Assembly: GCA_964187785.1 (NCBI GenBank)
Contig: OZ076409.1
Coordinates: forward strand, 73,968,001-74,032,000
DNA: 64,000 nucleotides
From: Amphiscolops sp. MND2022
Lineage: Eukaryota
Direction of reading: 5' to 3'
Shown here piece after piece: positions 1 to 56,419 of this stretch. The notes beneath the pieces are model-generated. The model ran no database searches. It was not told the origin of the DNA and was given only the letters and a program-made list of their open reading frames with translations. Numbering within the stretch: position 1 is the first letter of the stretch; each line of letters begins with the position of its first letter. The translations under genes and the position numbers were made by a program.

Positions 1-1509
1 TAAGTTGGAAACCTTGGTATCCATGGTTTCTGTCGGAACCTACTCGCAGCCAAACACCCAACAGTTTGCATCCAATGTGAAATAAAAAATTTTTTCGAGG
101 TCATAAGCGTTTCACAAGGTTTTCATGATTTAGTATTAAATTACATAGTGGTCATTTTAAACATAAAATTTTGGTCCAGGCATGTCGGATATAGTCTGAA
201 TGCTCACGAACGGTCCTACTGGCAACGTAGGAACCATTTATAGTAATAAAAAGTATTAAAAATTTTTTTCACCCGGTCTTCAGTCATTTTTCAGATATTC
301 GGAACTTAACTTAGAAAATTTTCGAACCAAATACCCATTTTTTGTCAGGTCGAAAATTGAAATTCAGCTATTAAAGCAAAATTTTTTACTCTGACGTAAC
401 CAGTGGGGTCCATGATACTCAAAAATACGATTGGGACTGGTACCAATGGCTCCTATATCATATGAGCCGCGATAAGACGTTATTTTGAGCAATACGTCTC
501 AATTGAGGTAAACATCTCGCAAGCCTGGGATCACAGTGAAATGTAATTTCATCAAAAAATTACTCATTTTCGTCAATCACTATGTGCATAGAGTGGGTAG
601 GGTGAGTTCCAACACTATAATGAGGTTTTTGAAGGCATCGGGTTGCTCAAGGGGTGGTATGAGTCATTACTTTCCTATATACAACTGTATTTTCAAAAAC
701 TTTTAGCCCATTATCTGGAAAAACTAACTTGACAAAATACTTTCAATTACTTTATTCAAAGGTTACAATATAGATGAACACTGTGGTTGATCAGAAACTT
801 TCATCTCTTTCGTTTTCCGAAATAACTCCTTTCAAATGTGTTACATTTGTAGCAGGAAAAAAAACTGAAACTAAAAAATACGCGATTTTGCTGAGATAGA
901 ATCGCAATGGTTGCGCCTAAAATCTCTTTAAAAACTTCTAACGCAGCCTTATGGACCCAAAATGATTGAAAATGCCATTCACAATGCTGACATGTGCTCT
1001 TTCTACGATCCTGGCTGGACAAGTTTTGCATTTTTTTCAAGTACCTGTTAACTGAACATTGTGATAGCCTTTCAAGTTGGCCTTGTGTCAACTTGGGAAG
1101 GCTGTCACATCAAAAAACTGTCCACAAAAATACCATTTGTTTATAGGATATTGCTGTCGATGCTTCACTTCGTGATTCGATCATGTCGTGAGTTCCTTCC
1201 ATCAGGTCAGCTAACATTTGGATTCAGTGTTGGATAAGAACCTATGATTTTCATGACAATTTTCGTTTTTTTTTTGCCAACAAAAAGTACAAATAAATGA
1301 TATAAAACATATTTGTAACCTCTAGGAAGTTTAACTTTACCTTTTTTACCGTTACCATCACAACCCACCCCCTACGACCTCGCAGTGTCCTCATTACAAC
1401 GCCACATAGTGTAGCGACGCCCACAGTCTGTGGGCATGCCGAGGCATGCCCTTCGACGACGTATGCCAAAAATAGCGCCCTCCGCGGTCACTACCGCGGT
1501 AGCAGCTAG
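1..1509 (+). mobile_element. Unit 0 (5' part outside window), ~2-kb class; close copy of unit 23014-25003
   Basis: Body matches 23494-25003 (ORF-track offset 23493). Internal hairpin H2 at 1061-1108, core palindrome 1432-1451, terminal hairpin CCGCGGT-cact-ACCGCGG, then CTAG 1506-1509. Confidence 0.7.
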
Positions 1510-2787
1510 GTGGTCGTTAGCATGGGATTTTCTTTATGAGCGTAGTCCACTTTTTTTAGGCCGGGGTAGGGTCCCGGGCCGTTACCAATTTCTTACGGAG
1601 GAAAAATGTGAAAATCTGCGAGTTTAAAAAATTGGCCCGTACGATTTGGCTGAAAATTGGCACACAGCATCGTCTTGGTAAACAAATGACTTTGTCCTAG
1701 TGACATTTTGCCCAGAAAATTCAAAAAGTTGGTCAAATTGAAAATTTTTTGACCGTCTAAGGCTAAAATTTGACTTTTTCGCTTTTTTTGGTCAATTTCC
1801 TCAGAACTGGTTGATTTTGGTGAAGTAAGTCATAAGAGGTTATAAGGTCTGCAAAAAGCCATCAATTGGCTTGCATAATCAGATTTTGTCAAAAGTGTTT
1901 AGTTTTTTCAAAATTCCACACTTTTTTTTCATGTCAGTGTTTTTTGATACAATTTATTGAATTTTTACTAAGTTCCACTAAATATTTTTAAAATGTTTTT
2001 AAAAAACCTTTTTTTGCACGTTTTTGATGTTTTTTGCTCTCCCATATAGGTTTTCGCATACGGGGAACCTGAATCTGACAACGAAATAATTTTATTCCGC
2101 AGTTCAACTTACGCCATTTTTAATAGTGAAAAATCACTCATTTTCAATCTAACGAGTGAAAATATCAGAATTTAAAAACCTAAAGTTGAGTTTAAGGCGA
2201 CTTACAGGTAGAAACAAATGCTCAGAAACAAACTGATTTCTTGTATTAGCTAAAGAAAGCCTTTAAAATTCTTTTTACTTTCTTTAAATCAAAATTCGAC
2301 ACTTTTCATGAAATTTGTCAGTGGAAAAAATTTATCATTTTTTAAATTAAAAACTTGCTTTGTTGGTCATTTCCGTTAGTCATTAGTAGCTGTGTAATGC
2401 TCCAAAGCCTTTCAAGTTCTTTTGACCCTATTTGAAAATTTTTGATACTGCATAATCAATCCGAGAGAACGAAACAGTTGTGTACATTCCATCTCCCTCT
2501 TGGGGGAGATGAGAATGTACTTCCTAAAGTCCAGGTACTACAGATCATATTTGGTTTTATGCGACGCCCTCTATGCTAGTGCATATAAATACAAGTTGTT
2601 TGGCTGGATTTTGCTTCTGACTTGACGTATACTGTACGTTTGGTACTGACAATACCCATCATTTACATAACAAACGTCAACGCCACATACCCTTACCAAC
2701 GCCCATAGTCCGTAGGCATGCCGAGGCATGCCTTTCGACGACGCGCGCCAAACACAAGCGCGCCCGCACTTTTGCGGTAGCAGCTAG
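1510..2787 (+). mobile_element. Unit 1, 1278 bp, ~1.3-kb class, distinct family
   Basis: Starts GTGGTC. Left hairpin 1559-1580, H1 hairpin 2482-2520, core 2714-2733, CTAG 2784-2787. Body is seen only once in the window. Confidence 0.7.
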
Positions 2788-5022
2788 GTGGGCGGGGGTA
2801 ATTCCCCAACAAAAAAATCGGCCGGCGGGTCGGGTCCTGCCGGCCGTCCAAAATCAAAATTATACTAGTAGAAAACGGCCGGTCAAACGAGCTATTTTTT
2901 TATTTAACCGTTAGAATTTGGGTTTAGATTGCATGCGGCCATGAAATGGCCATACGAATCGAAGTTCCTGCTGACGTTTTGCGATTGAAACACTTTATAA
3001 AAAGTTATGGCCAATTTGTCAGTCACCTAGAAGGGCAAAATGAGGAAAATTTTAACAAAGTCGCTGATAACTCAAAATGTGTTATTTTTTGGACTTTGAC
3101 TGTGAAACAAGCTTGGAACCTTCATTTCGTGGCTGTGGCATTGCACTGAACGCAAAAGATGTAAAGTTTTTACATTTTTTGAAAATTTGACATTTTTGAA
3201 ATTTTTTTCACTACTATCAGTACCATATATGTCAAAAACACCTCAGAAAAAAAATTTTATTTGCTTTAACTTGGAAACCTTGGTATCCATGGTTTCTGTC
3301 GGAACCTACTCGCAACCAAACAACCAACAGTTTGCATCCAATGTGAAAATAAAAAATTTTTCTGGGTCATAAGCGTTTCACAAGGATTTCTCAACTTAGT
3401 ATTGATTTACAAAATGGTCATTTTGAACACAATATTTTCATCGAGGCTTGTCGGCTATAGCCTTAATGTTCTAGAACGGTCCCACTGGCAACGTAGGAAC
3501 CATTTATAGTAATAGAAAGTTTAAAAAATATATTATCACCCTGTCTTCAGTCATTTTTCTGTCATTCGGAACTTAACTTAGAAAAATTTCGACCAAAATA
3601 CCCATTTTTTGACAGATCGAAAATTCAAATTCAACTTTTTAAGCAAAATTATTAACTCTGACGTAACCAGTGGGGCTCATGATACTCAAAAACACGATTG
3701 GGACTGGTACCAATGGCTCCAATATCATATGAGCCGCGATAAGACGTTATTTTGAGCAATACGTCTCAATTGAGGGAAACATCTCGCAAGCCTGGGATCA
3801 CAGTTAAAAGTGATTTCGTCAAAAATTTACTCTTTTTCGTCAATCACTATGTACACAGAGTGCGTAGGGTGAGTTTCAGCACTATAATGCGGTTTTTGAA
3901 GGAATCGGTCTGCTCAAGGGGTGGTATGAGACATTTTTTTTGCATGTAGTACTATATTTCTCAAAACTTTTAGCCCATTATCTCGAAAAGCTCACTTCGC
4001 AAATTACTTTCAGTTACTCTATTCGAAGCTTAGAATATATATGAACACTGTGGTTGATCAGAAACTCTTGACTATTTTGTTTTTGGAAAAAAACTGCCTT
4101 GCATGTGTTACATTAGTGGCAGGAAAAATACCAGTAGCTCCAAAAATCACAATTTTGGACGGACAGACCTGCAATGATGCAAAGCAAAAACGTTTCAACA
4201 ACTTCTGGCGCCACTTTTTTTACCCAAGAGGTTCGAAATTACTATTAACAATGCTGACATTCGCTATAAATAAGATCGAGGTCAATTTATTAACACTTAG
4301 GTTATACATTTATATCTGAGAAACCATTCTTTGTCAGGTCGCAATTTTAAATTTAGTTTGGGAAGCAATACTTTTCACTCTGAAGCAAACCGTTGGGCCC
4401 AAATTACTCAAAAACTACAAAAAGACTGTCACCATATGCCCTAATAGCATATGAGATTCGACCGTTCGTTTTTAACACAAAAACTCTCATCCGAAGTAAA
4501 CATGTTGAAAGCCTTGAATCACCGTGAGAAATGATTTCATCAAAAAATATTCCTTTTTCGTCAATCTTTATCTACACAGAACACGTTGTGTCATTTTCAG
4601 CCGTGAAATGAGCTTCTACCGTAATATGGGTTGCTCAAGGTGTTGTATAAGTCAAAAACTTCCTCTTTTCTACTATCTTCTTCAAATATTTCAACCCTTT
4701 GTCACAAGAAGTTAATATTCAAAATCTCTTTGAAATGTTTCTTTAGGTTGGGGTGAAGTGTTAGAACAATAATTATGATCGAAGAATGATAGTATTGGTG
4801 TTTGGACCATGTCCGGATGAACAAATTGCAAAATCATGAAAAATTTCTTACCATTTTTGGTCATTTTGTCAGTACTAAAAATGTTAGCTGAAAAAGAATT
4901 TTTTTGATGGCACCATTGGATTCCTCTCAAAAAGTTAGCTATATGAACTGTGTAATAACCCCGTATCTTTTCAATTTAAATAATTTTAAAAAGCAAACTT
5001 TTTTGACTAAAATCCTAAAAAT

Positions 5023-6370
5023 CATACCATTTCCTAAAAAATTTCAAATGCCCCCCATTTGACGTATAAGAATAGCACAGAAAACTATCACATACCGATC
5101 GACTCTACTTCCATTGTAAATTACCAGAATTTTGTTTAGAACAATTTTTGACGGATGCAAAAAAAATTTAAACCCTCCAAAAAAGGGCCAAAATTACACG
5201 AAAAAATTGACCTTAAAATTTTAAAATGTCGAAAAATCATCAAAACCACAGCTTCTTGGGGTTCTATCAACTCCACGTGGTCCACAGAGTATGTTAAAAC
5301 AAGTTTTACCCGTATTTGAGCAATATGTGAAAAAGCCGACTTTTTTGGGAATGAAAAACATACCATTTCCTAAAAAATTTCAAACGCACCCCATTTGACG
5401 TATAAGAATAGCACAGAAAACTATCACATACCGATCGACTCTACTTCCATTGTAGGTTACCAGAATCTTGTTTAGAACAATTGTTGACGGATGCAAAAAA
5501 AAATTAAACCCTCCAAAAATGGGCCAAAATTACACGAAAAAATTGACCTTAAATTTTTAAAATGTCAAAAAATCATCAAAACCACAGCTTCTTGGGGTTC
5601 TATCAACTCCACGTGGTCCACAGAGTATGCTAAAACAGGTTTTACCTGTTTCTGAGCTATATGTGAAAAAACCGACATTTTGGGGAAGAAAAACATACCA
5701 TTTCCTAAAAAATTTCAAATGCACGCCATTTGCCGTATGAGAATAGCACAGAAAACTATCACATACCGATCAACTCTACTTCTATTGTAGATTATCAGAT
5801 TCTTGTTTAGAACAAATTTTTATGGATATAAAAAATTTTTAAACCCTCCAAAAATGAGCCAAAATAACACGAAAAAATGGACCCTAAATTTTTAAAATGT
5901 CAAAAAATTATCCAAACCACAGCTTCTTGGGGTTCTATCAGCTCCACGTGGTCCACAGAGTATGCTAAAACAGGTTTTGCCCGTTTTTGAGCAGTATATG
6001 AAAAAGCCGACATTTTTGGGGAAGAAAAACATACCATTTCCTAAATAATTTCAAATGCAGGCAATTTGCCGTATGAGAGTAGCACAGAAAACTATCACAC
6101 ACCGATCAACTCTACTTCTTTTGTAGATTATCAGAATTATGTTTAGAGTAAAGTTTTATGGATATGAAAAATTTTTATACCCTCCAAAAATGGGCCAAAA
6201 TGACACGAAAAAATTGACCTCAAATTTTTAAAATGTCAAAAAATTATCCAAACCACAGCGTCTTGGCGTTCTATCAACTCCAAATGACCTTCAGAGTATA
6301 CCAAACCAGGTATTGCCAATCTTTTGAGCAATATTTAAAAACACCGACAATTTGGCAAGAACACCATAAT
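5023..6370. repeat. Internal tandem repeat, ~4 x 336 bp (unit 2)
   Basis: CATACCATTTCCTAAA recurs at 5023, 5359, 5694 and 6030. End position approximate. Confidence 0.9.
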
Positions 6371-7436
6371 ATGTTCCATATAAGAAGTGAATCATTCCAC
6401 ATATATACCCGGTCTAATATTTCCAAATTAGCGATAACATTTATACATGATGGTTTTTGAAAGTGAGCTTCATAAGAGGTTGAGATGTAATAATACGTAA
6501 ATGGACCCTAAGTTTCATTGAAATCTCAATTGAATACGTCCAATCAACTTCAATCCTAACTATTATATATCAAAAAACACTTGAGTACATTCCATCTCCC
6601 CATCGGGGGAGATGAGAATGTACTTTTCAAAAGCCAAAAACTTCGAATTTTAAATCTTTTGTAACATTGTATGTAACTGTTGAAACGATGAACGAATAAA
6701 AATGCTTCTAGTACCTTCATCAATTTTTGCTTCAGCTCCTATTTCTGCAGAACAAAACCAAAAGACACACTTACAGCAGTTAAGTTCGATTGTATAACTC
6801 AGTGAATAAAGGTATGACTGAGGAAGTTCACAAGTTGTTTCAAAAGTTTCCGGCCTTCCAAAATCATGAAACGTCCACACAACCAAGATAGCAAGTGAAA
6901 GAATGCTGAATGCACCTTATTAGATGAGATAAATAATGTGTGGAACTTGCCATTATCTCAAGATGACGTTGATTTATGATCTTTTCAGGATAGTTCGATA
7001 TGTGACCACAATAGTGGAAAACTTATTACTATTTGAAGAACACCGTGGAAAGCGTTCAGAAAGGACAGTATATTTGTTTCGAGCATGCATGCGTGTGTTC
7101 CTTTGGTGACGTTAGCTTAGTGTACATGACGGAGGTATTCGAGAGATTATGATAGAGTTTACTCACAAGTCTTTGTTTTTTTAAACTTTCTATGCCGTTG
7201 AGTACATTCGTAAGGTACATCCATCCCCTTCTCTGGGAATGTACGTTTGCCAAATGACTGTCATCCAAAATTCGTAATCCGGACGAGTTTAACTACATAA
7301 ACATGTGATGAGCGTTTTCAATTCACAACCGAATAACATTTTTTTCTCGAAAATGATGATGGTTTTGATTTTGATGTCTTCTACTTTTATCATCATGCAA
7401 ACGACCTTACCATGTCTCTCTTCTGTCGTCATTTGT

Positions 7437-7549
7437 ACAACGCCACATAGCGTTCCGACGCCCACCGTCTGTGGGCATGCCGAGGCATGCCCTTCGACGA
7501 CGTATGCCAAATGAGCCATACCCGCACTCTGGAGTGCGGTAGCAGCTAG
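7437..7549 (+). other. Representative conserved right-end module (present in all 23 unit ends)
   Basis: CAACGCC...CGACGCCCAC-GTCYGT-RGGCATGCCGAGGCATGCCY-TTCGACGACG-variable spacer-GC hairpin-CTRR. About 48-59 nt separate the palindrome from the end. Confidence 0.9.
7473..7492. promoter_or_regulatory. Invariant 20-bp palindrome, probable protein-binding site; 19/20 match to the p53-family response element (representative of 23 copies)
   Basis: GGGCATGCCG|AGGCATGCCC compared with RRRCWWGYYY x2 with zero spacer. Function not demonstrated. Confidence 0.5.
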
Positions 7550-9531
7550 GTGGGCGGGGGTAATTCCCCTTCAAAAAATTCGGCCGGCGGGTTGGGTCCT
7601 GCCGGACGTCAAATAGTGTGAAACATCCAGTAGGAAACGGCGACATTTATCAGCGATTTTAAAATTTAACCGTTAGAATTCGGACTTGGAGTGCATGCGG
7701 CCCCAAAATGCCCATACGAATGGAAGTTCCTGCTGACGTTAAGCGATAAAAACACTTTATAAAAAGTTATGGCCCATTTTACGTTCACTTAGAGAGGTAA
7801 AATGAGGAAAATTTTAACAAAGTTGCTGATAACTCAAAATACTTTAATTTTTGGACTTTGACTGTGAAACAAGCTTGGAACCTTCATTTCGTGGCTGTGG
7901 CATTGCACTGAACACAAAAGATGTAAAGTTTTCACATTTTTTGAAAATTCGACATTTTTGAATTTTTTTCACTACTATCTGTACACTATATGTCAAAAAC
8001 ACCTCTGAAAAAATTTTTTGTTTGCTTAAATTTAGAAACCTCGGTATCCATGGTTTCTGTCGGAACCTACACGCAGCCAAACACTCAACAGTTTGCATCC
8101 AATGTGAAAATAAAATTTTTTTCGGGGTCATAAGCGTTTCACAAGGATTTCTCAACTTAGTATTAATTTACAAAATGGTCATTTTGAACACAATATTTTC
8201 ATCGAGGCTTGTCGGCTATAGCCTTAATGTTCTAGAACGGTCCCACTGGCAACGTAGGAACCATTTATAGTAATAGAAAGTTTTAAAAAAATTTTTTCAT
8301 CCGGTCTTCAGTCATTTTTCAGTCATTCGGAACTTAACTTAGAAAAATTTCGACCAAAATACCCATTTTTTGTCAGGTCGAAAATTCAAATTCAGATTTT
8401 TAAGCGATATTATTAACTCTGACGTAACCCATGGGGCCCATGATACTCAAAACAACGATTGACACTGGTATCAATGGCTCCAATAACATATGAGTCGCGA
8501 TAAGACGTTATTTTGAGCAATACGTCTCAATTGAGGTAAAGATCTCGCAAGCCAGCGATCACTGTGAAATGTGATTTCATCATAAATTTACTCATTTTTG
8601 TCAATCACTATGTGCACAGAATGCGTAGGGTGCGTTTCAGCACTATAATGAGGTATTTGAAAGCATCGAGTTGCTCAAGGGGTGGTATGAGACATTTTTG
8701 TCCCATATACTTCTGTATTTTCCAAAATTTTTAGCCCAATATCTGGAAATACAAACATGACAAATAACTTTCAACTACTTTATTCAAAGGTTACAATATA
8801 GATGAACACTGTGGTTGGTCAGAAACTTTCATCTCTTTCGTTTTCCGAAATATTTCCCTTCGCATGTGTTACATTTGTAGCAGAAAAAAAATCGATACTG
8901 AAAAATACGCTATTTTGCTAATATAGAATCGCAATGATTGTGCCTAAAAACTCTTTAAACACTTCTAGCGCGACCTTACGCACCCAAAATTATCGAAAAT
9001 GCTATTCACAATGGTGACATGTGCTCTTTCAACGATCCTGACTGAACAATTTTCGCAAATTATTCAAGTACCTGTTAACTGAATCTCGTGATAGCCTTTT
9101 AAGTTGGCCTTGTGTCAACTTGGGAAGGCTATCACATCAAAAAATTTCCAACAATAATACTTTTTGTTTATTGGAAATGACAGTCGATATATAATTTCGT
9201 GATTCTATACTACCGTTAGTACCTTCCATTAAGTCACGTGACGATTGCATTCAGTCTTTGATAAATACCTATGAACTCGAAGTCATATTTATAAATTTTT
9301 CGCTAAAAATAATTATCAAAATTATCCAAATTATTTAAAATTGAGTCTTTATCGTTTTTGTTTTTCTTTTTCTACTGTTATTAGGCCCATCAACTTCCTA
9401 CAGCCACGCTCTCTGTCATTAGTACAACGCCACATAGTGTTGCGACGTTCACAGTCTGTGGGCATGCCGAGGCATGCCCTTCGACGACGTATGCCGAATA
9501 CCGCGGGCCTACGCCCGCGCTCCCCGGCTAG
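7550..9531 (+). mobile_element. Unit 3, 1982 bp, ~2-kb class
   Basis: Shares its first ~1.27 kb with the 4.76-kb class. H2 at 9088-9135, core 9460-9479, hairpin CGCGGGC-ctac-GCCCGCG, CTAG 9528-9531. Confidence 0.75.
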
Positions 9532-21039: not shown

Positions 21040-23013
21040 GTGCGGGGGGGAAACCCCAACAAAATTTTTGGAGGATTCGGGTAGGGTCCTGAATCCGAGT
21101 TCAGTGCTGCCAGCTTTCGTTAAGAAAATTTGGATAGGATTCGGGATCTCGTGATCTAACCATAGGATTTTAAAGTTGGAGCGGCCCCCACCAGATTTTC
21201 CGAAAATTAGCGCCCCCCACCGGGTTCCATACCCCGGAAAATTTTTTTCTGGCCACACGGGCGACCGTTAGGGGGTCATTTTAGGGGTAAAATTCATATT
21301 GGGCCACATAACTTTTTTTCTGTTGATTTAAAACTTTGGGACCCTGCTAAAAGTTTCTTGACCGTGTTGCAAGGGCTCCGGAGGTCCAAACCAAATTTTT
21401 CTATCTTGAAGCTATCTCCAAGTACCCCCCCGCCCAAAACGTTATTTTTCCGGAAACGCAGGTTTTAGACCCGGAAGGAGTCGTCTGAGCGCGGGGTCGT
21501 TAGGTGATGTTTTGGGGACGGCCTTAAGACGAAGTGGGGGACATGTAGTTTGTCAACCTCAGTTTACCCCCCGGACAGGAAATGACCGTTATATGAGCGG
21601 GAAAATTGCCCCCCTCCACGTTTTACCGCTATTTCCGGTGTGAAGGAGTGGGAGTAGCGCGTCGGGTGTTATATAACAAAAGTAGGTTTAGACAAGAACC
21701 TATCGGAAACATGTAGTTTGGGACCCTCTGGACCAACCCGTTAGCGGGAAATGGCGCTTCCGCTTCCTTTTTTTACTGCTAAAACCGTAAAATGGGCATT
21801 GAGGGGTAAATATCTCGTGAACGCGTGGAGCAATCGTGTCCATCACTACTACAAGGTTTCATACCCATGATATGGTGCCTTCAGGGGGGCAAACAGATTT
21901 CCGCTATCTATCACCGTTACGGACTTGGCCCCCCAGCCTAACCGCTATGTGACCGGAAATGTCACTTTTTGAGCCCAAAGGGTCGGTCCCAGCCGGGGAA
22001 CGTTAGGTAACTTATTGTAGTACTCAATGAGACGAGTTGGGGGACATAGTTTCAGTCACCCCCCGTTACCCCTTGGGACCGGAAATGACCGTTATGTGGG
22101 TAAATTTGCTTTTTTTATACTCTTTGAAGTGGATTTATGTGCGGAAGGAGTGGTAATAGGTGCTTGGACACTATATGAGGTAAGGGAGGACGTGAGGCGA
22201 GCATTCGGAAATAACCGTTATGTTGACCCTAAAGTCCCCCTGGTACCGGAAGTGACCCGTAATGGTCAAATTTTGTGTTCAAAGGGTACAAATGTTTGGT
22301 GTTTTATGGATAACAGTGCCTATTAGGTGTTTCGACGGTCTGCAGTCGTGAACATATTCATGAAACCTTGTGGGGGGTAACGGTATAAAGCACCGGAAGT
22401 CCAAACCTTTGGAGAAAGGATAAGTTTTTTGGTTTTAAAATGTCTTTCGGCCTACTTTTGTCGACTATTACGGTCTATTTTTGAAAAATAATGTTTTTCC
22501 ATATAGTTTCAGAGACTCCGAAACCTCAACCAACATAACCGTTACGTTATGATAGCCTTTCAAGTTGGCCTGGTGTCAACTTGGAAGGGCTATCCTTCAA
22601 AAATCATTAATCAATTGTGTTTTTGAGTATGTTTGTATTACTTTAGAATCAATTAGAGCTTCAAAAAAGTTTGCCAACGACAAAAACTATGTCGTGATGA
22701 TTCCGTTATTAGAATAATGGTTAAGAAAATGTTGATAAATTTGATTTTTTACATTTCAAATGTGTCCTAAATGCCAGAAAACCTCTTTACCAAACAAATG
22801 GTATTGAGTGAATTGTATATAACAGCTAATAAAAGTTCAAATTGAATATTACGTTTCATTTTGGAAGCTGAAACGTCATATTGTAGTTTAATTAACGTCA
22901 ACGCCACATACTTTACATCAACGCCCACCGTCCGTAGGCATGCCGAGGCATGCCTTTCGACGACGTATACCAGATTCCACCCACACAACACCCCCGAGCG
23001 CGGTAGCAGCTAG
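21040..23013 (+). mobile_element. Unit 7, 1974 bp, ~2-kb length but a different, GC-richer body
   Basis: Starts GTGCGGGGGGGAAACCCC. Left hairpin 21073-21096, many CCGGAA motifs, H2 at 22551-22594, core 22936-22955, CTAG 23010-23013. Confidence 0.7.
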
Positions 23014-26988: not shown

Positions 26989-29900
26989 GTGGGCGGGGGT
27001 AATTCCCCAACTAAAAATTCGGCCGGCGGGTCGGGTCCTGCCGGCCGTCCAAAATCAAAATCCTACTAGTAGAAAACGGCATGTCAAACGAGCTATTTTT
27101 TTATTTAACCGTTAGAATTTGGGTTTAGATTGCATGCGGCCATGAAATGGCCATACGAATTGAAGTTCCTGCTGACGTTTTGCGATTGAAACACTTTATA
27201 AAAAGTTATGGCCAATTTGTCAGTCACCTAGAAGGGCAAAATGAGGAAAATTTTAACAAAGTCGCTGATATCTCAAAATGTGTTAATTTTTGGACTTTGA
27301 CTGTGAAACAAGCTTGGAACCTTCATTTCGTGGCTGTGGCATTGCACTGAACACAAAAGCTGTAAAGTTTTCACATTTTTTGAAAATTCGACATTTTTGA
27401 AATTTCTTTCACTACCATCAGTACCCCATATGTCAAAAACACCTCAGAAAAAAATTTTTATTTGCTTTAAATTGGAAACCTTGGTATCCATGGTTTCTGT
27501 CGGAACCTACTCGCAGCCAAACACCCAACAGTTTGCATCCAATGTGAAATAAAAAAATTTTTCGAGGTCATAAGCGTTTCACAAGGTTTTCATGATTTAG
27601 TATTAAATTACATAGTGGTCATTTTAAACATAAAATTTTGGTCCAGGCATGTCGGATATAGTCTGAATGCTCACGAACGGTCCTACTGGCAACGTATGAA
27701 CCATTTATAGTAATAAAAAGTATTAAAAAAATTTTTTCACCCGGTCTTCAGTCATTTTTCAGACATTCGGAACTTAACTTAGAAAATTTTCGAACCAAAT
27801 ACCCATTTTTTGTCAGGTCGAAAATTGAAATTCAGCTAATAAAGCAAAATTTTTTACTCTGACGTAACCAGTGGGGTCCATGATACTCAAAAATACGATT
27901 GGGACTGGTACCAATGGCTCCTATATCATATGAGCCGCGATAAGATGTTATTTCGAGCAATACGTCTCAATTGAGGTAAACATCTCGCAAGCCTGGGATC
28001 ACAGTGAATTGTAATTTTATCAAAATTTTACTCATTTTTGTCAATCACTATGTGCACAGAGTGCGTAGGGGGAGTTGTAGCACTATAATGAGGTTTTTGA
28101 AGGCATCGGGTTGCTCAAGGGGTGGTATGAGACATTTTTTTCCTATATACTACTGTATTTTCCAAAACTTTTAGCCCATTATCTGCAAAAACTAACTTGA
28201 CAAAATACTTTGAGTTACTCTACTCAAAGCTTAGAACATAGATGAACACTGTGGTTGATCAGAAACTATTTACTATTTTGTTTTTAGAAAAAACTGCCTT
28301 GCATGTGTTACACTAGTGGCAGGAAAAATACCAGTAGCTCCAAAAATCACAAATTTGGACGGACAGACTTGCAATGATGCAAAGCAAAAACGTTTCAACA
28401 ACTTCTGACGCCACTTCTTTTACCCAAGAGGTTCGAAAACGCCATTAACAAGGCTGACATTCGCAATAAATAAGATCGAGGTCCATTTACTAACACTTAG
28501 GTTTCAAATTTGTTTCTGAGAAACCCGTTTTTGTCAGGTCGCAATTTCAAATTTAATTTGGGAAGCAAAATTTTTCACTCTGAAGCAAACCGCTGGGCCC
28601 AAATTACTCAAAAACAACAAAAAGACTATCACCATATGCTCTAATAACATATGAGATGCGACAGTATGCTTTTAACACAAAAACTCTCATCCGAAGTAAA
28701 CATGTTGAAAGCCTTGAATCACCGTGAGAAGTGATTTCATCAAAAAATATTTCTTTTTCGTCAATCACTATATACACAAAACCCGTTGTGTTAGTTTCAG
28801 CCGTGAAATGAGGTTCTACCGTAATATGGGTTGCTCAAGGTGTTGTATAAGAGAAAATCGTCCTCTTTTCTACTAACTTCTTCAAATATTTCGACCCTTT
28901 GTCACACGAAGTTAAAATTCAAAATCTCTTTGAATTGTTTCTTTAGGTTGGGATGAAGTGGTAGAACAATAACTTTGATCCAAGAATGCTAGTATTGGTG
29001 TTTGGACCATGTTTGGATGAACAAATCGCAAAATCATGAAAAATTTGTTTCTTTTTTTGGTTATTTTGGCAGTACTAAAAATGTTAGCTGACAAATAATT
29101 TTTTCGATAGCACCATTGGATTCCGCTCAAAAAGTTGGTTATATGACATGTGTAATAACGCCGTATCTTTTCAATTTAAATATATTTAAAAAGCCAACTT
29201 TTTTGACCAAAATCCTAAAAATCATACCATTTCCTAAAAAATTTCAAATGCACCCCATTTGACGTATAACAATAGCACAGAAAACTATCATATACCGATC
29301 AACTCTACTCTCATTGTGGATTATTAGCATTTTGTTTTGAACGAATTTTGATGGATATTAAAAAATTTTGAACCCTCCAAATATGGGCCAAAATTACACG
29401 AAAAAATTGACCTTAAAATTTTAAAATGTCAAAAAATCATCAAAACTACAGCTTCTTGGGGTTCTATCAACTCCACGTGGTCCACAGAGTACGCTAAAAC
29501 AGGTTTTACCCGTTTTTGAGCAATATGTGAAAAAGCCGACATTTTTGGGAAAGAAAAACATCCCATTTCCTAAAAAAATTCAATTGCACGCCATTTGCCG
29601 TATGAGAATAGCACGGAAAACTATCACATACCGATCAACTCTACTTTTATTGTAGATGATTAAAAATTAGTTTAAAACAAATTTTGACGGATATTAAAAA
29701 ATTTTAAACCCTTAAAAAATGGGCCAAAATTACACGAAAAAATTGACCTTAAAATTTTAAAATGTCACAAAATCATCAAAACCACAGCTTCTTGGGGTTC
29801 TATCAACTCCACGTGGTCCACAGAGTACGCTAAAACAGGTTTTACCCGTTTTTGAGCAATATGTGAAAAAGCCGACATTTTTGGGGAAGAAAAAATAGGC

Positions 29901-31738
29901 ATTTCCTAAAAAAATCAAATGCACGCCATTTGCCGTATAAGAATAGCACAGAAAACTATCATATACCGATCAACTCTACTCCCATTGTAGATTATTAGAA
30001 TTTTATTTTGAATGATTTTTGATGGTTATTAAAAAATTTTGAGCCCCCCAAAAGCGGGCCAAAATTACACGAAAAAATTGACCTTAAAATTTTAAAATGT
30101 CAAATAATCATCGAAACCACAGCTTCTTGGGGTTCTATCCACTCCACATGGCCCACAGAGTATGCCAAACCAGGTTTTGCGCGTTTTTGAGCAATATTTG
30201 AGAAAGCCGAGTTTTTTGGGGAAGAAAAACATAACATTTCCTAATAAAATTCAAATGCACGCCATTTGGCGTATGACAATAGCACAGAAAACTATCACAT
30301 ACTAATCAACTCTACTCTCTTTGTAGATCACCAGAGTTTTGCTTAGAATAAATTTTGATGAATATTTGTAAATTTTAAACCCTCCTAATATGGGCCAAAA
30401 TCACACGGAAAAATTGACCGTAAGGTATTAAAATGTCAGAAATTCATCAAAACCACAGCTTCTTGGGGTTCTATCATTTCTATATGACTTTCAGAGTATA
30501 CCAAACAAGGTATTAACATTGGGCGATAATTAAAAACACCAATTTTATTTTAGAAGAAAACCATAATAAGTTCAATATAAGAAGTGAATCATTCCATATA
30601 TATACCCTGTCTTATATTTTAAATTAGCGATAATATATATACTTGATGTTTTTTGAAAGTGAGCTTCATAAGTGGTTGAGATGTGATAATACGTAAATGG
30701 ATTCCAAGTTTCATCGAAATGTCAATGGAATACGTCCAATCAACTTCAATCTTAACAATTAGATAACAAAAAACCTAAGTACATTCCATCTCCCCATCGG
30801 GGAGATGAGAATGTACTTTTCAAAAACCAAAAACTTAGATGTTTTTTTTTTGTAACACTTACTGTAACTGCTGAAATGATGAAAGAATAATTATGCTTCT
30901 AATAACTCCATGATTTTTTGCTTCAGCATTTTTTTTGCAGAACAAAACCATCAGACATATTTTTCGCAGTTAAGTTCGATCGTATTACCCAGTGAACAAA
31001 GGTATGGAAGGATGTTTACAAGTTGTTTCAAAACTTTCCCGCCTTCCAAAATAATGAAACGTCTACACAACCAAGATAGCAAATGAATGAATGCGGAATG
31101 CATCTTATTAGATAAGATAAATAACGTGTAGAACTTACCTTTATCTGAAGTTGACGTTGATTTATGATCTTTAGAGGATAGTTTGATTTTTGACCATAAT
31201 AGTGGGAAACTAATTATTATATGAATGATGGCGTGGAAAGCGTTCAGAAATTGTAGTATTTTGGATTCGAGCATGTATGCGTGGGTTCCTTTGGTGGCGT
31301 TAGCTTAGTGTACATGATGGAAGTTTTCGATCTGTTATGATTAATTTTACTCACGAGTCTTTGTTTTTCCTATTTTTTTGCCATTAAGTACATTCATTCT
31401 ATCCCCTTTTCTGAGAATGTACGTTTGTCAAATGACTGTCATCCAAATTTTGCATTCCCGAAGAGTTTAAATACATAACACGTGTTTAGCGTTTCCAAAT
31501 CACAACCGAGTAACATTCTATTTTTTTTTCTCAAAATTGATAATGGTTTTGATTTTGGTGTCTTCTACTTTCATCATCCATCATAACAACCACCTTACCA
31601 TGTCTCTCGCTTGTCTTCATTTTACAACGCCACATAGTGTAGCGACGCCCACAGTCTGTGGGCATGCCGAGGCATGCCCTTCGACGACGTATGCCAAATT
31701 TAGCGTTAGCCCGCGGTCACTACCGCGGTAGCAGCTAG
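26989..31738 (+). mobile_element. Unit 10, 4750 bp, diverged 4.76-kb class member
   Basis: Has the 336-bp array and H1 (~30777-30817), but its terminal hairpin is the unit 0/8 type. Core 31660-31679, CTAG 31735-31738. Confidence 0.75.
29223..30570. repeat. Internal tandem repeat, ~4 x 336 bp (unit 10)
   Basis: Diverged monomers, same copy number. End approximate. Confidence 0.85.
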
Positions 31739-34700
31739 GTGGGCGGGGGTAATTCCCCAACTAAAAATTCGGCCGGCGGGTCGGGTCCTGCCGGCCGTCC
31801 AAAATCAAAATCCTCCTAGTAGAAAACGGCATGTCAAACGAGCTATTTTTTTATTTAACCGTTAGAATTTGGGTTTAGATTGCATGCGGCCATGAAATGG
31901 CCATACGAATTGAAGTTCCTGCTGACGTTTTGCGATTGAAACACTTTATAAAAAGTTATGGCCAATTTGTCAGTCACCTAGAAGGGCAAAATGAGGAAAA
32001 TTTTAACAAACTCGCTGATATCTCAAAATGTGTTAATTTTTGGACTTTGACTGTGAAACAAGCTTGGAACCTTCATTTCGTGGCTGTGGCATTGCACTGA
32101 ACACAAAAGCTGTAAAGTTTTCACATTTTTTGAAAATTCGACATTTTTGAAATTTTTTTCACTACTATCAGTACCCCATATGTCAAAAACACCTCAGAAA
32201 AAAATTTTTATTTACTTTAAATTGGAAACCTTGGTATCCATGGTTTCTGTCGGAACCTACTCGCAGCCAAACACCCAACAGTTTGCATCCAATGTGAAAT
32301 AAAAAATTTTTTCGAGGTCATAAGCGTTTCACAAGGTTTTCATGATTTAGTATTAAATTACATAGTGGTCATTTTAAACATAAAATTTTGGTCCAGGCAT
32401 GTCGGATATAGTCTGAATGCTCACGAACGGTCCTACTGGCAACGTAGGAACCATTTATAGTAATAAAAAGTATTAAAAAAATTTTTTCACCCGGTCTTCA
32501 GTCATTTTTCAGACATTCGGAACTTAACTTAGAAAATTTTCGAACCAAATACCCATTTTTTGACAGATCGAAAATTCAAATTCAACTTTTTAAGCAAAAT
32601 TATTAACTCTGACGTAACCAGTGGGGTCCATGATACTCAAAAATACGATTGGGACTGGTACCAATGGCTCCAATATCATATGAGCCGCGATAAGACGTTA
32701 TTTTGAGCAATACGTCTCAATTGAGGGAAACATCTCGCAAGCCTGGGATCACAGTTAAAAGTGATTTCGTCAAAAATTTACTCTTTTTCGTCAATCACTA
32801 TGTACACAGAGTGCGTAGGGTGAGTTTCAGCACTATAATGCGGTTTTTGAAGGCATCGGGTTGCTCAAGGGGTGGTATGAGACATTTTTTTTTGCATGTA
32901 GTACTATATTTCTCAAAACTTTTAGCCCATTGTCTCGAAAAGCTCACTTCGCAAATTACTTTCAATTACTCTATTCGAAGCTTAGAATATATATGAACAC
33001 TGTGGTTGATCAGAAACTCTTGACTATTTTGTTTTTGGAAAAAAACTGCCTTGCATGTGTTACATTAGTGGCAGGAAAAATACCAGTAGCTCCAAAAATC
33101 ACAATTTTGGACGGACAGACCTGCAATGATGCAAAGCAAAAACGTTTCAACAACTTCTGGCGCCACTTTTTTTTTACCCAAGAGGTTCGAAATTACTATT
33201 AACAATGCTGACATTCGCTATAAATAAGATCGAGGTCAATTTACTAACACTTAGGTTATACATTTATATCTGAGAAACCATTCTTTGTCAGGTCGCAATT
33301 TTAAATTTAGTTTGGGAAGCAATACTTTTCACTCTGAAGCAAACCGTTGGGCCCAAATTACTCAAAAACTACAAAAAGACTGTCACCATATGCCCTAATA
33401 GCATATGAGATTCGACCGTATGTTTTTAACACAAAAACTCTCATCCGAAGTAAACATGTTGAAAGCCTTGAATCACCGTGAGAAATGATTTCATCAAAAA
33501 ATATTCCTTTTTCGTCAATCTTTATCTACACAGAACACGTTGTGTCATTTTCAGCCGTGAAATGAGCTTCTACCGTAATATGGGTTGCTCAAGGTGTTGT
33601 ATAAGACAAAAACTTCCTCTTTTCTACTATCTTCTTCAAATATTTCAACCCTTTGTCACAAGAAGTTAATATTCAAAATCTCTTTGAAATGTTTCTTTAG
33701 GTTGGGGTGAAGTGTTAGAACAATAATTATGATCGAAGAATGATAGTATTGGTGTTTGGACCATGTCCGGATGAACAAATTGCAAAATCATGAAAAATTT
33801 CTTACCATTTTTGGTCATTTTGTCAGTACTAAAAATGTTAGCTGAAAAAGAATTTTTTTGATGGCACCATTGGATTCCTCTCAAAAAGTTAGCTATATGA
33901 GCTGTGTAATAACCCCGTATCTTTTCAATTTAAATAATTTTAAAAAGCAAACTTTTTTGACTAAAATCCTAAAAATCATACCATTTCCTAAAAAATTTCA
34001 AATGCCCCCCATTTGACGTATAAGAATAGCACAGAAAACTATCACATACCGATCGACTCTACTTCCATTGTAGATTACCAGAATTTTGTTTAGAACAATT
34101 TTTGACGGATGCAAAAAAAATTTAAACCCTCCAAAAAAGGGCCAAAATTACACGAAAAAATTGACCTTAAAATTTTAAAATGTCGAAAAATCATCAAAAC
34201 CACAGCTTCTTGGGGTTCTATCAACTCCACGTGGTCCACAGAGTATGTTAAAACAAGTTTTACCCGTATTTGAGCAATATGTGAAAAAGCCGACTTTTTT
34301 GGGAATGAAAAACATACCATTTCCTAAAAAATTTCAAACGCACCCCATTTGACGTATAAGAATAGCACAGAAAACTATCACATACCGATCGACTCTACTT
34401 CCATTGTAGTTTACCAGAATCTTGTTTAGAACAATTGTTGACGGATGCAAAAAAAAATTAAACCCTCCAAAAATGGGCCAAAATTACACGAAAAAATTGA
34501 CCTTAAATTCTTAAAATGTCAAAAAATCATCAAAACCACAGCTTCTTGGGGTTCTATCAAATCCACGTGGTCCACAGAGTATGCTAAAACAGGTTTTACC
34601 TGTTTCTGAGCTATATATGAAAAAACCGACATTTTGGGGAAGAAAAACATACCATTTCCTAAAAAATTTCAAATGCACGCCATTTGCCGTATGAGAATAG

Positions 34701-36503
34701 CACAGAAAACTATCACATACCGATCAACTCTACTTCTATTGTAGATTATCAGATTTTTGTTTAGAACAAATTTTTATGGATATAAAAAATTTTTAAACCC
34801 TCCAAAAATGAGCCAAAATAACACGAAAAAATGGACCCTAAATTTTTAAAATGTCAAAAAATTATCCAAACCACAGCTTCTTGGGGTTCTATCAGCTCCA
34901 CGTGGTCCACAGAGTATGCTAAAACAGGTTTTGCCCGTTTTTGAGCAATATATGAAAAAGCCGACATTTTTGGGGAAGAAAAACATACCATTTCCTAAAT
35001 AATTTCAAATGCAGGCAATTTGCCGTATGAGAGTAGCACAGAAAACTATCACACACCGATCAACTCTACTTCTTTTGTAGATTATCAGAATTATGTTTAG
35101 AGTAAAGTTTTATGGATATGAAAAATTTTTATACCCTCCAAAAATGGGCCAAAATGACACGAAAAAATTGACCTCAAATTTTTAAAATGTCAAAAAATTA
35201 TCCAAACCACAGCGTCTTGGCGTTCTATCAACTCCAAATGACCTTCAGAGTATACCAAACCAGGTATTGCCAATCTTTTGAGCAATATTTAAAAACACCG
35301 ACTATTTGGCAAGAACACCATAATATGTTCCATATAAGAAGTGAATCATTCCACATATATACCCGGTCTAATATTTCCAACTTAGCGATAACATTTATAC
35401 ATGATGGTTTTTGAAAGTGAGCTTCATAAGAGGTTGAGATGTAATAATACGTAAATGGACCCTAAGTTTCATTGAAATCTCAATGGAATACGTCCAATCA
35501 ACTTCAATCCTAACTATTATATAACAATAAACACTTGAGTACATTCCATCTCCCCATCGGGGGAGATGAGAATGTACTTTTCAAAAGCCAAAAACTTCGA
35601 ATTTTAAATCTTTTGTAACATTGTATGTAACTGTTGAAACGATGAACGAATAAAAATGCTTCTAGTACCTTCATCAATTTTTGCTTCAGCTCCTATTTCT
35701 GCAGAACAAAACCAAAAGACACACTTACAGCAGTTAAGTTCGATTGTATAACTCAGTGATATAAAGGTATGACTGAGGAAGTTCACAAGTTGTTTCAAAA
35801 GTTTCCGGCCTTCCAAAATCATGAAACGTCCACACAACCAAGATAGCAAGTGAAAGAATGCTGAATGAACCTTATTAGATGAGATAAATAATGTGTGGAA
35901 CTTGCCATTATCTCAAGATGACGTTGATTTATGATCTTTTAAGGATAGTTCGATATGTGACCACAATAGTGGAAAACTTATTACTATTTGAAGAACACCG
36001 TGGAAAGCGTTCAGAAAGGACAGTATATTTGTTTCGAGCATGCATGCGTGTGTTCCTTTGGTGACGTTAGCTTAGTGTACATGACGGAGGTATTCGAGAG
36101 ATTATGATAGAGTTTACTCACAAGTCTTTGTTTTTTAAACTTTCTATGCCGTTGAGTACATTCGTAAGGTACATCCATCCCCTTCTCTGGGAATGTACGT
36201 TTGCCAAATGACTGTCATCCAAAATTCGTAATCCGGACGAGTTTAACTACATAAACATGTGATGAGCGTTTTCAATTCACAACCGAATAACATTTTTTTC
36301 TCGAAAATGATGATGGTTTTGATTTTGATGTCTTCTACTTTTATCATCATGCAAACGACCTTACCATGTCTCTCTTCTGTCGTCATTTGTACAACGCCAC
36401 ATAGCGTTCCGACGCCCACCGTCTGTGGGCATGCCGAGGCATGCCCTTCGACGACGTATGCCAAATGAGCCATACCCGCACTCTGGAGTGCGGTAGCGGC
36501 TAG
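31739..36503 (+). mobile_element. Unit 11, 4765 bp, 4.76-kb class
   Basis: The first ~0.8 kb resembles unit 10 and the remainder resembles unit 2. Core 36427-36446, CTAG 36500-36503. Confidence 0.75.
33977..35325. repeat. Internal tandem repeat, ~4 x 336 bp (unit 11)
   Basis: Same monomers as unit 2. End approximate. Confidence 0.88.
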
Positions 36504-45232: not shown

Positions 45233-47220
45233 GTGGGCGGGGGTAATTCCCCAACAAAAATTACGGCCGGCGGGTTGGGTCCTGCCGGACGTTCAAATAG
45301 CGCGAAGCATCTAGTAGAAAACAAGGAGTCCTGAAACAGCGATTTTAAAATTGAACCGTTAGAATTTGGTTTTAGATTGCATGCGGCCCTAAAATCCCCA
45401 TACGAATGGAAGTTCCTGCTGGCGTTAAGCGATTGAAATAATATATAAAAAGTTATGGCCCATTTTTGGGTCATCGAGAAGGTCAAAATGAGGAAAATTT
45501 TAACTAAGTTGCTGATAACTCAAAATGTGTTAATTTTTGGACTTTGACTGTGAAACAAGCTTGGAACCTTCATTTCGTGGCTGTGGCATTGCACTGAACA
45601 CAAATGATGTAAAGTTTTCACATTTTTTGAAAATTCGACATTTTTGAATTTTTTTCACTACTATCAGTACACTATATGTCAAAAACACCTCTGAAAAAAT
45701 TTTTTATTTGCTTAAAATTGGAAACCTTGGTATCCATGGTTTCTGTCGGAACCTACTCGCTGCCAAACACCCAACAGTTTGCATCCAATGTGAATTTAAA
45801 ATTTTTTTCGAGGTCATAAGTGTTTCACAAGGTTTTCATAACTTAGTATTAAACTACAAACTGGTCATTTTCAACATAATATCTTTGTCGAGGCATGTCG
45901 GATATAGTCCTATTGCTCACGAACGGTCCTACTGGCAACGTAATAACCATTTATAGAAATGTAAAGTTATAAAAAAAATTTTCACCCGGTCTTCAGTCAT
46001 TTTTCAGTCATTCGGAACTTAACTTAGAAAAATTTCGACCAAAATATCCATTTTTTGTCAGGTCGAAAAATCAAATTCAGATTTTTAAGCAAAATTATTA
46101 ACTCTGACGTAACCCATGGGGCCCATGATACTCAAAACAACGATTGACACTGGTATCAATGGCTCCAATAGCATATGAGTCGCGATAAGACGTTATTTTG
46201 AGCATTACGTCTCAATTGAGGTAAAGATCTCGCAAGCCAGTGATCACTGTGAAATGTGATTTCATCAAAAATTTACTCTTTTTTGTCAATCACTATGTGC
46301 ACAGAATGCGTAGGGTGCGTTTCAGCACTATAATGAGGTTTTTGAAGGCATCGAGTTGCTCAAGGGGTGGTATGAGACATTTTTGTCCCATATACTACTG
46401 TATTTTCCAAAATTTTTAGCCCAAAATCTGCAAATACAAACTTGACAAAATACTTTCAACTACTTTATTCAAAGGTTACAATATAGATGAACACTGTGGT
46501 TGATCAGAAACTTTCATCTCTTTCGTTTTCCGAAATATTTCCCTTCGCATGTGTAACATTCGTAGCAGAAAAAAAAATCGAAACTGAAAAATACGCAATT
46601 TTGCTAGAATAGAAACGCAATGATTGTGCCTAAAAACTCTTTAAACACTTCTAACGCAACCTTACGCACCCAAAATGATCGAAAATGCTATTCACAATGG
46701 TGACATGTGCTCTTTCTACGATCCTGGCTGGACAAGGTTTGCATATTTTTCAAGTACCTGTCAGCTAAATCTTGTGATAGCCTTTTCAGTTGGCCTTGTG
46801 TCAACTTGGGAAGGCTATCACATCAAAAAACCATCAACAAAAATAATTTTTGTTTATTGGATCTTACAGTCGATACTTTTTTTCGTGATTCTTTACTACC
46901 ATTAGTATATTTCATCAGGTCACCTTACAATTGCATTCAGTCTTTGATAAAAACCTATGAACTCAAAGTCACATTTATATATTTTTTTGCCAGAAAATAA
47001 CATCAAAAATATCTAAAATATATAAAATAGAGTCTTTAACATTTTTACGTTTCAAGTTTTTGCCGTTATTAGGCCAATCAACGTCCTAGAGCCACATCCT
47101 GCCACATACTGTACAACGCCACATAGTGTTGCGACGTGCACAGTCTGTGGGCATGCCGAGGCATGCCCTTCGACGACGTATGCCGAATACCGCGGGCCTA
47201 CGCCCGCGCTCCCCGGCTAG
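45233..47220 (+). mobile_element. Unit 15, 1988 bp, ~2-kb class
   Basis: Core 47149-47168, CTAG 47217-47220. Confidence 0.75.
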
Positions 47221-50200: not shown

Positions 50201-50292
50201 TGTTAATCAACGCCCACCGTCCGTAGGCATGCCGAGGCATGCCTTTCGACGACGCGCGCCAAAAACAATATAACGGCGCCACCTGCTTCTGG
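47221..50292 (+). mobile_element. Unit 16, 3072 bp, ~3.07-kb class, distinct family
   Basis: Starts GTGGTCAGTG. CCGGAA(G/A)T clusters, H3 hairpin 49623-49664, core 50225-50244, ends CTGG 50289-50292. Confidence 0.7.
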
Positions 50293-53200: not shown

Positions 53201-53362
53201 CCGTGCAAAGCTTTTTTTCACACCATGTGACTCAACTATTACATGTATGTAATGAAACCAATAACACCTTCAACTATCAACGCCCACCGTCCGTAGGCAT
53301 GCCGAGGCATGCCTTTCGACGACGCGCGCCGGAAACAATCTAACGGCGCCACCCGCTTCTGG
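50293..53362 (+). mobile_element. Unit 17, 3070 bp, ~3.07-kb class
   Basis: Paralog of unit 16. H3 at 52696-52737, core 53295-53314, CTGG 53359-53362. Confidence 0.7.
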
Positions 53363-56300: not shown

Positions 56301-56419
56301 TGTATGTAATGAAACCAATAACACCTTCAACTATCAACGCCCACCGTCCGTAGGCATGCCGAGGCATGCCTTTCGACGACGCGCGCCGAAAACAATCTAA
56401 CGGCGCCACCCGCTTCTGG
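53363..56419 (+). mobile_element. Unit 18, 3057 bp, ~3.07-kb class
   Basis: Appears to be a mosaic of unit 16-like and unit 17-like variants. H3 at 55753-55794, core 56352-56371, CTGG 56416-56419. Confidence 0.7.

Follow-up and report, generated by a model that had tools for sequence, protein, structure and literature searches.

End modules common to seven types of gene-less unit, with a p53-like double palindrome, in a 64-kb array

Why should a 20-bp double palindrome that resembles a p53 site recur throughout a gene-free stretch of DNA, and what reads it? An earlier note on this DNA had described the palindrome and had offered two candidate readers, a host p53-family protein and the enzyme that mobilises the elements. 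We analysed the whole stretch (64,000 nucleotides, hereafter the window). In our view, the better finding is a set of end modules that seven gene-less types of unit have in common within one precisely joined array. To explain these modules, we propose, at somewhat less than even odds (a probability of about 0.42), that the palindrome is the core of a cis-acting right-end signal; that the units are non-autonomous Helitron-like rolling-circle elements, each inserting at the junctions of others; and that the conserved block around the palindrome is read by the elements' own machinery.

Unit types and their joints

The entire window (1–64000, + strand) is a spacer-free, one-way array of non-coding units, of which 22 are full and 2 partial. 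The units are 1278–4765 bp long and fall into seven types, in the order BACBCCBDBBCCBBCBEEEFGBB(B); the partial units at the two ends of the window are both of type B. Copies of the same type are 83–99.6% alike and mosaic. Type B (1982 bp at 7550–9531) has nine full copies, which are 83–99.6% identical and mosaic, and type C (4762 bp at 2788–7549) has six, which are 84–99.5% identical. The first ~1470 bp of type C are common with type B, and each type C unit contains a 336-bp tandem repeat in about four copies (5018–6355 in this unit). Types A (1278 bp at 1510–2787) and D (1974 bp at 21040–23013) are present as single copies. The three type E units (47221–56419) are 3057–3072 bp long and 93–96% identical. 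Finally, type F (1303 bp) lies at 56420–57722 and type G (1994 bp) at 57723–59716.

The insides of these types differ in how far they are related. Types B, C, and G have long stretches in common at 80–85% identity, and types A and F have 347 bp in common at 69%; types D and E have only blocks of up to ~140 bp in common with other types. In type G, the middle resembles type B (~80%) and the right end resembles type A (89% over 110 bp), and the region of the left hairpin is also A-like; ends and bodies are thus exchanged between types.

Several smaller features of the unit bodies were also seen. Two adjacent units (26989–31738 and 31739–36503) are 98–100% alike over the first 800 alignment columns and ~90% alike overall. 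The unit at 45233–47220 tracks one unit (U21) at its start and end and another (U13) in its middle. A short GTGTGAAGGAGTGGG-like block is common to types D, E, and F (21617–21715, 47680–47765, and 56887–56938), about 460–590 bp from the left end, and the bodies of these types are otherwise unlike. Type C has an old internal duplication of about 280–330 bp (3602–3880 and 4324–4654, 69% alike), for which type B has one copy, and type D has an internal duplication of ~185 bp. As for coding remnants, none of 57 stop-to-stop frames of at least 60 aa, from 7 representatives of the 22 full units, matches Pfam at E 0.01. The ratio of observed to expected CpG inside the units is 0.67–1.09, i.e., CpG is not depleted, which suggests that there is little CpG methylation in the host. 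That the array is free of genes suggests to us that this host is a eukaryote.

Although some of the seven non-coding types have almost nothing in common inside, all of them retain the same end modules, and they meet exactly at CTRG|GTGS (1506–1513 at the first junction), where the switch from one type to the next falls within GGTG (1509–1512). CTRGGTGS occurs 23 times on the + strand of the window and never on the − strand, exclusively at junctions. Unlike types are joined at 15 of the 23 junctions, with 13 kinds of neighbour pair overall, and the joints have no spacer, no truncation, and no added or lost bases. GGTG is invariant at all 23 junctions and in L001, a metagenomic contig that carries the same block (see below). 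All 23 left ends start with GTG. The 3' end is CTRR at all 23 junctions (CTAG at 20 and CTGG at three, those of the type E units); L001 has CGAG. The cut after CTRG is our own placement, as the sequence data fix the joint only to within GGTG.

A single right-end type is found before three different left-end types, and the flanks of the palindrome remain linked, so the switch between units lies in GGTG and not in the palindrome. A crossover inside the palindrome is ruled out by the same linkage of the flanks on both sides. We saw neither an empty site nor a solo copy or circle in the window.

Precise joints between unlike units would also be expected if the units were non-autonomous tyrosine-recombinase (Crypton-like) elements, whose circles would recombine at a 4–5 bp core (GGTG or RGGTG) to build an integron-like cassette array, with the block as an accessory binding site. 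Indeed, one shared word of 4–5 bp bounds each unit, much as Cryptons are described as having terminal direct repeats of 4–6 bp, and circles have been proposed for Cryptons (PMC3212892). However, Cryptons have inverted arms of 11–13 bp around a core of 6–8 bp (PMC3212892), and by eye there are no such arms in the list of junctions; nor do the frames compared to Pfam include a tyrosine recombinase gene. Arrays of Cryptons do not appear in the text cited (PMC3212892). Also, the ends of these units form hairpins whose stems change while their loops stay fixed, which points to single strands, and the CTRR-plus-hairpin geometry at 16 of the 23 right ends would be left unexplained (both are described below). 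We therefore consider a Crypton-like origin to be very unlikely.

A p53-like core within a 36-bp block

All 23 copies of the palindrome in the window match RGGCATGCCGAGGCATGCCY exactly and lie on the + strand (1432–1451 for the first), as the earlier note had claimed, and it is directly visible that each consists of two GGCATGCC palindromes on a 10-bp pitch. In 100 dinucleotide shuffles, the mean number of matches to RGGCATGCCGAGGCATGCCY was 0.00, even if three mismatches were allowed. The outer pair of bases is G..C in 17 copies (including the copies at 1432 and, in type F, at 57653) and A..T in six (at 2714 in type A, 22936 in type D, 50225, 53295, and 56352 in the type E units, and 59643 in type G), and no copy is mixed.

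To compare the palindrome to p53 sites, we used a consensus of two RRRCWWGYYY decamers separated by a spacer of 0–13 (PMC3485254) and counted mismatches only. As previously claimed, the palindrome fits this consensus at 19 of 20 positions with a spacer of 0, and it does so in all 23 copies. If no spacer is allowed, then perfect sites are absent from the window; one mismatch is found in 23 sites, namely the 20-mer copies, and two mismatches in four others. In each of the 23, it is the G at position 10 that departs from the consensus, and this base is fixed in 24/24 copies once L001 is included. The four weaker matches (18/20, at 5287, 12031, 16792, and 34241) lie inside the 336-bp repeat of type C, have cores other than CATG/CATG, and are probably due to chance. 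For the palindrome itself, 8 of the 256 palindromic 8-mers fit the p53 core, so that the chance of a fit is ~0.03 given a doubled palindrome, and nine-base arms fit a p53 half-site by chance about 4 times in 10,000 (4e-4 per arm).

The claim of an invariant 20-bp core holds for the 20-mer, but the fixed stretch is longer than 20 bp. The 36-bp block (1426–1461) reads GTCYGT-R-GGCATGCCGAGGCATGCC-Y-TTCGACGACG, with three variable positions, and all 23 copies in the window match it exactly; 33 of the 36 positions are invariant when L001 is compared together with the 18 distinct right ends in the window. The block has imperfect inverted symmetry out to GTC...GAC, and the fixation extends 6 bp to the left and 10 bp to the right of the 20-bp p53 footprint. 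On a tree of the right ends, there were 0 changes at positions 2–19 of the 20-mer versus 32 changes over 22 nearby columns (1.45 per column), so the constraint on the block is sharp and is wider than the p53 footprint. Within the 20-mer, only positions 1 and 20 vary, both in ways that the p53 consensus allows, and the 16 flanking bases are equally fixed. Two boxes lie upstream of the block (1397–1424): CAACGCCACAT at 1397–1407, which is present in 20 of the 23 copies, and CRACGYBCAY at 1415–1424. Downstream, the distance from the 20-mer to the joint varies from 48 to 59 bp.

The perfect covariation of the outer bases stands in that there is no mixed copy, but the 17:6 split reduces to one or two events instead of six. 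The earlier note had suggested counting the switches between the G..C and A..T forms on a tree of right ends. In our tree (24 right ends, 19 of them different, with the two trait positions masked and 200 bootstraps), the best topology has two switches, and a single switch is not rejected (p-AU = 0.211); 3% of the 200 bootstrap trees need only one. The possible second switch rests on the copy at 57653, which has the G..C form within flanks that resemble the flanks of the A..T copy at 22936. As evidence for symmetry, one or two double changes are modest; they would fit hairpin pairing or templated correction between the arms. Nor is the covariation at odds with a p53 site, because spacerless CATG/CATG (AT × AT) p53 elements tend toward full 20-bp palindromes, according to the portion of the source that deals with them (PMC1888811). 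As both readings fit the covariation, it does not decide between them. Separately, just 3' of the block (1462–1467 and equivalent positions), TAT and CGC are exchanged as a set (GTATGC, GCGCGC, or GTATAC), and this word can pair with a downstream partner in several right ends. We take the exchange as a second hint of pairing.

One alternative to a signal read by the elements' own machinery is that the 20-mer, within a composite block, is a working tetramer site for a host protein of the p53/p63/p73 family. Binding would tie DNA damage, or the germ line, to mobilisation or else to transcription from the start of the next unit, which lies 48–59 bp downstream. The copies of the 20-mer, with their CATG cores and without a spacer, are the sole sites of such quality in the window, and the low chance of a fit (~4e-4 per nine-base arm) favours this reading. 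A coupling across the full palindrome is typical of spacerless AT × AT elements (PMC1888811) and would fit the covariation of positions 1 and 20; the varying distance to the joint would suit a transcription factor; and there is a precedent in the zebrafish element EnSpm-N6_DR (PMC3485254). Still, we rate this explanation as possible but rather doubtful. First, the fixed mismatch G10 is in an inner quarter-site, and the inner quarter-sites are the more conserved part of human p53 elements, as reported in the part of the study that compares them (PMC7897521). Second, 14 degenerate inner positions are invariant, as against a rough 7–10 tolerated changes expected, a figure that depends on the tolerated fraction that we assumed and that strong selection for top affinity would lower. 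Third, fixation is equally strict at the 16 flanking bases, for which another reader is needed. Thus, p53 alone does not account for the fixed flanks or for the fixed mismatch. As to the choice that the earlier note had posed, the p53 match is real, but an enzyme site or a hairpin fits the one or two switches, the fixed flanks, and G10 better. Binding should be kept apart from selection: a host p53-family protein of the usual specificity, if present, would probably bind the 20-mer, whether or not this matters to the element. Under the rolling-circle reading that we prefer, such a protein may well bind the block without being what keeps the block fixed.

Another alternative is that the block has no current role: the units would have it by shared ancestry, and gene conversion among their ends would keep it uniform across a satellite-like array. 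The bodies and ends of the units are mosaic, as in type G with its B-like middle and A-like right end, and a single switch is statistically enough for the split into G..C and A..T forms. This seems improbable because the invariance ends sharply on both sides of the 36 bp while the neighbouring positions change. Conversion would also leave unexplained the GGTG joints, the three interchangeable internal hairpins (see below), and the block in L001.

Hairpins and a proposed rolling-circle mechanism

Between the block and the joint is an 18-nt GC-rich hairpin (1482–1499), 10 nt from the 3' end of the unit. This is the geometry of a Helitron right end, which has CTRR and a hairpin of 16–20 nt about 11 nt from the 3' end (PMC4067079). 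Hairpins of 18 nt, 10–12 nt from the end, are found in 16 of the 23 right ends and hairpins of 14 nt in two more. The remaining five right ends (types D, E, and F), and also that of L001, have no hairpin that is better than in shuffled sequences.

The left ends have a hairpin as well (1559–1580 in the second unit), with a fixed core, GGGKHGGGNCC, and family-specific stems. The core is present in all 23 left ends and in L001, 39–57 nt inside the unit. Left hairpins fold more stably with their own arms than with arms swapped between families (mean of −9.7 versus −6.5 kcal/mol), but in only 4 of 7 rows is the best partner found among a hairpin's own arms.

Finally, each of the 23 units has one long internal hairpin of 16–22 pairs, which comes in three unrelated sequences. 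Type I (2482–2520) is found in 8 of the 23 units and in L001, 306–974 bp from the right end; type II (1060–1109) in 12 units, 443–464 bp from the right end; and type III (49623–49663) in three units, ~670 bp from the right end. The z-scores of these hairpins are −5 to −10, and are inflated because the windows were chosen. When we scanned seven representative units over their full length, the long hairpin was the sole strong one in the interior. The three sequences seem to be interchangeable; candidate roles are second-strand origin, terminator, or small-RNA precursor.

Other kinds of structure were considered. The longest asymmetric inverted repeats in the nine units tested are 5–7 nt and were equalled by 23–192 of 200 shuffles, so we reject them in 9 of 9 units. 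We also reject DIRS-like internal complementary regions, as short matches between an end and the interior numbered just two, in 2 of 9 units. Hammerhead ribozymes are set aside as well, on a loose scan for a 7-letter core (6 and 27 matches) and on Rfam, which gave none. Across the 64 kb, there is no match to Rfam at the gathering score; within 1000–3200, there are six weak matches, with E values of 0.16–4.9.

These results bear on whether the units move via RNA. If units were added serially from RNA copies, then the upstream right end would be the promoter of the next unit and the hairpins would be RNA structures. Arrays of telomeric retroelements have a similar layout. The single orientation, the absence of spacers, the structured ends, and a transcription-factor-like site 48–59 bp before each start all agree with this idea. 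On the other side, none of the 23 joints has a poly(A) tail or a 5' truncation, no Rfam family reaches the gathering score, and there are no split or internal complementary end repeats. We give serial addition of RNA copies very little credence indeed.

Instead, we propose that the units move by a rolling-circle route. An enzyme of the HUH type, encoded elsewhere, would cut and join single strands within GGTG; we infer this class of enzyme from the unit ends only. A unit would leave as a circle, whose junction would resemble the junctions of the array. Circles would then insert at existing junctions, or be copied as concatemers (for example, EEE), which would give a mixed one-way array, and host recombination would afterwards mix the copies into mosaics. 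The block would be read base by base by the element's protein complex, either as a two-fold symmetric duplex site or as an extruded hairpin. As for the long internal hairpin, a possible role is to prime the second strand, for which rolling-circle plasmids provide an analogy.

Several results argue for this rolling-circle reading: the precise joints, most of them between unlike units (15/23); the CTRR at every right end (23/23) and the 18-nt hairpin at most of them (16/23); the fixed left loop with exchanged stems; the internal hairpin in every unit (23/23); the fixation of the block beyond the p53 footprint; and the recurrence of the modules in L001. Other results argue against it. The 5' end is GTG rather than TC or T, and an asymmetric inverted repeat is absent in 9 of 9 units. 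Seven of the 23 right ends lack the full hairpin, L001 has CGAG, and the distance from the block to the joint varies. A hairpin does not need self-palindromic arms on a 10-bp pitch, which is the architecture of a p53 site. Also, there is no enzyme gene among the 57 frames from the seven representative units.

A bolder possibility is that the units belong to an undescribed eukaryotic class of self-targeting elements. Gene-less circles of many families would dock exclusively at the junctions of one another, which would build integron-like arrays; each circle would carry a hairpin that primes the second strand and a high-affinity p53-family site that would license mobilisation in the germ line or in response to DNA damage. 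We consider this to be unlikely.

Known elements and relatives elsewhere

How do these units compare to described elements, in the portions of the cited reports that deal with their ends? Like canonical Helitrons (Helitron1/HLE1), they have CTRR and the right-end hairpin at the counts given above (PMC4067079), and they are non-coding units with internal tandem repeats and end-to-start junctions without duplication (PMC2267711, PMC5148889). Head-to-tail Helitron junctions are known, including one between unlike elements (PMC2267711, PMC5148889). Unlike canonical Helitrons, the units start with GTG instead of TC, and no A/T host target was seen; they also add the left hairpin, the long internal hairpin, and the 36-bp invariant double palindrome. 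Furthermore, the maize report describes one unlike pair of Helitrons, whereas this array of mixed types extends over at least 64 kb.

The second main group of Helitrons (Helitron2/Helentron, with DINE-1 and HINE) is like these units in having hairpins at both ends (PMC3627910, PMC4067079), which we find at all 23 left ends and most right ends. Central tandem repeats, which we see in one type of unit, are a further similarity, as is a conserved word that lies some tens of bases in from the 3' end. In contrast to this group (HLE2), no asymmetric or subterminal inverted repeat is common to the two ends (9 units), and the junction letters lack a 5' T and the TT or T(T/C) target. To judge from their sequence, the units appear to work most like Helitrons, but we do not class them as such, as the tests for 5'-TC and for asymmetric repeats failed. 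Annotation that relies on the ends would probably miss such elements, since their ends pass the tests of neither main Helitron group.

Other rolling-circle elements offer partial parallels. Third-clade Helitrons of Paramecium have non-canonical ends, strict orientation, internal satellites, and a chosen target (PMC13085455), like the units here. Telomeric repeats flank the Paramecium elements; flanking DNA is absent here, and the junction of another unit appears to serve as the target. Replitrons, which are HUH elements, resemble the units in their short terminal direct repeat, the ~50 bp that the ends of partners share, and a right-end palindrome (PMC10288648). Their definition includes a Y1 Rep without a helicase (PMC10288648). 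However, Replitrons in Chlamydomonas have fuzzy right ends and variable target duplications, and they are known from plants, algae, and protists; the text cited mentions no mixed arrays of them (PMC10288648).

EnSpm-N6_DR is similar in that it is a non-autonomous DNA element with a p53 consensus site, but it is a dispersed inverted-repeat element that regulates neighbouring genes (PMC3485254), whereas the p53-like site here is the most fixed part of the ends of several types of unit in a gene-free array. Subtelomeric arrays of a single Helitron subfamily (bioRxiv 10.1101/2024.11.21.624632) and tandem mosaics of transposons in centromeres (bioRxiv 10.64898/2026.09.17.752431) are known from the available text of those reports. 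In the literature covered (in part, and outside repeat databases and supplements), we found no description of this motif or of mixed arrays with such ends, and the excerpts on Helitrons contained no case of a p53 binding site.

The length of the array and the single base-exact word at which its unlike units meet point to an enzyme whose target is its own junction, and such self-targeting would be a route from transposon to satellite DNA. If it is true that a p53-family protein binds the block and is needed, then a mobile element's core cis-signal would be a switch of the host's response to DNA damage. For the missing autonomous partner, a search key is available in the 36-bp block, together with the junction word and the core of the left hairpin.

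We searched other collections for such relatives. The exact 20-mer and the type I internal hairpin each have 0 matches in viral contigs. GGCATGCCNNGGCATGCC is found at 12 loci in viral contigs, none of which has the flanks of the block or similarity to the units. If the flanks are required and the core is left free, there are 29 viral loci and one prokaryote locus, and in none of these is the core palindromic (at most 12 of 20 positions are self-complementary). The 26-mer has no match in prokaryote genomes, and phages and plasmids gave no match either. As these scans of viruses, prokaryotes, phages, and plasmids found no relatives, they gave no divergent copy in which the retention of the CWWG cores could be compared to the retention of the palindrome.

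In metagenomes, the block was found in 1 of 241 million records, which is contig L001. The block of L001 has the A..T form, and L001 is identical to type D over 51 bp, up to the end of the type D block. L001 also has a GGTG junction 52 bp further on, the left hairpin core, and the type I internal hairpin (567–605), and the rest of its sequence is different. A 16-nt inverted match across the junction of L001 is not repeated in the window, and we take it to be chance. Finally, two sequencing runs, with shares of 0.06 and 0.05, were listed for this DNA, and none from RNA; at 80% similarity, they gave only short pieces. Of these, one 519-base contig, on which we base no conclusion, spans 7431–7884 of the window, including a junction, with 59 differences.
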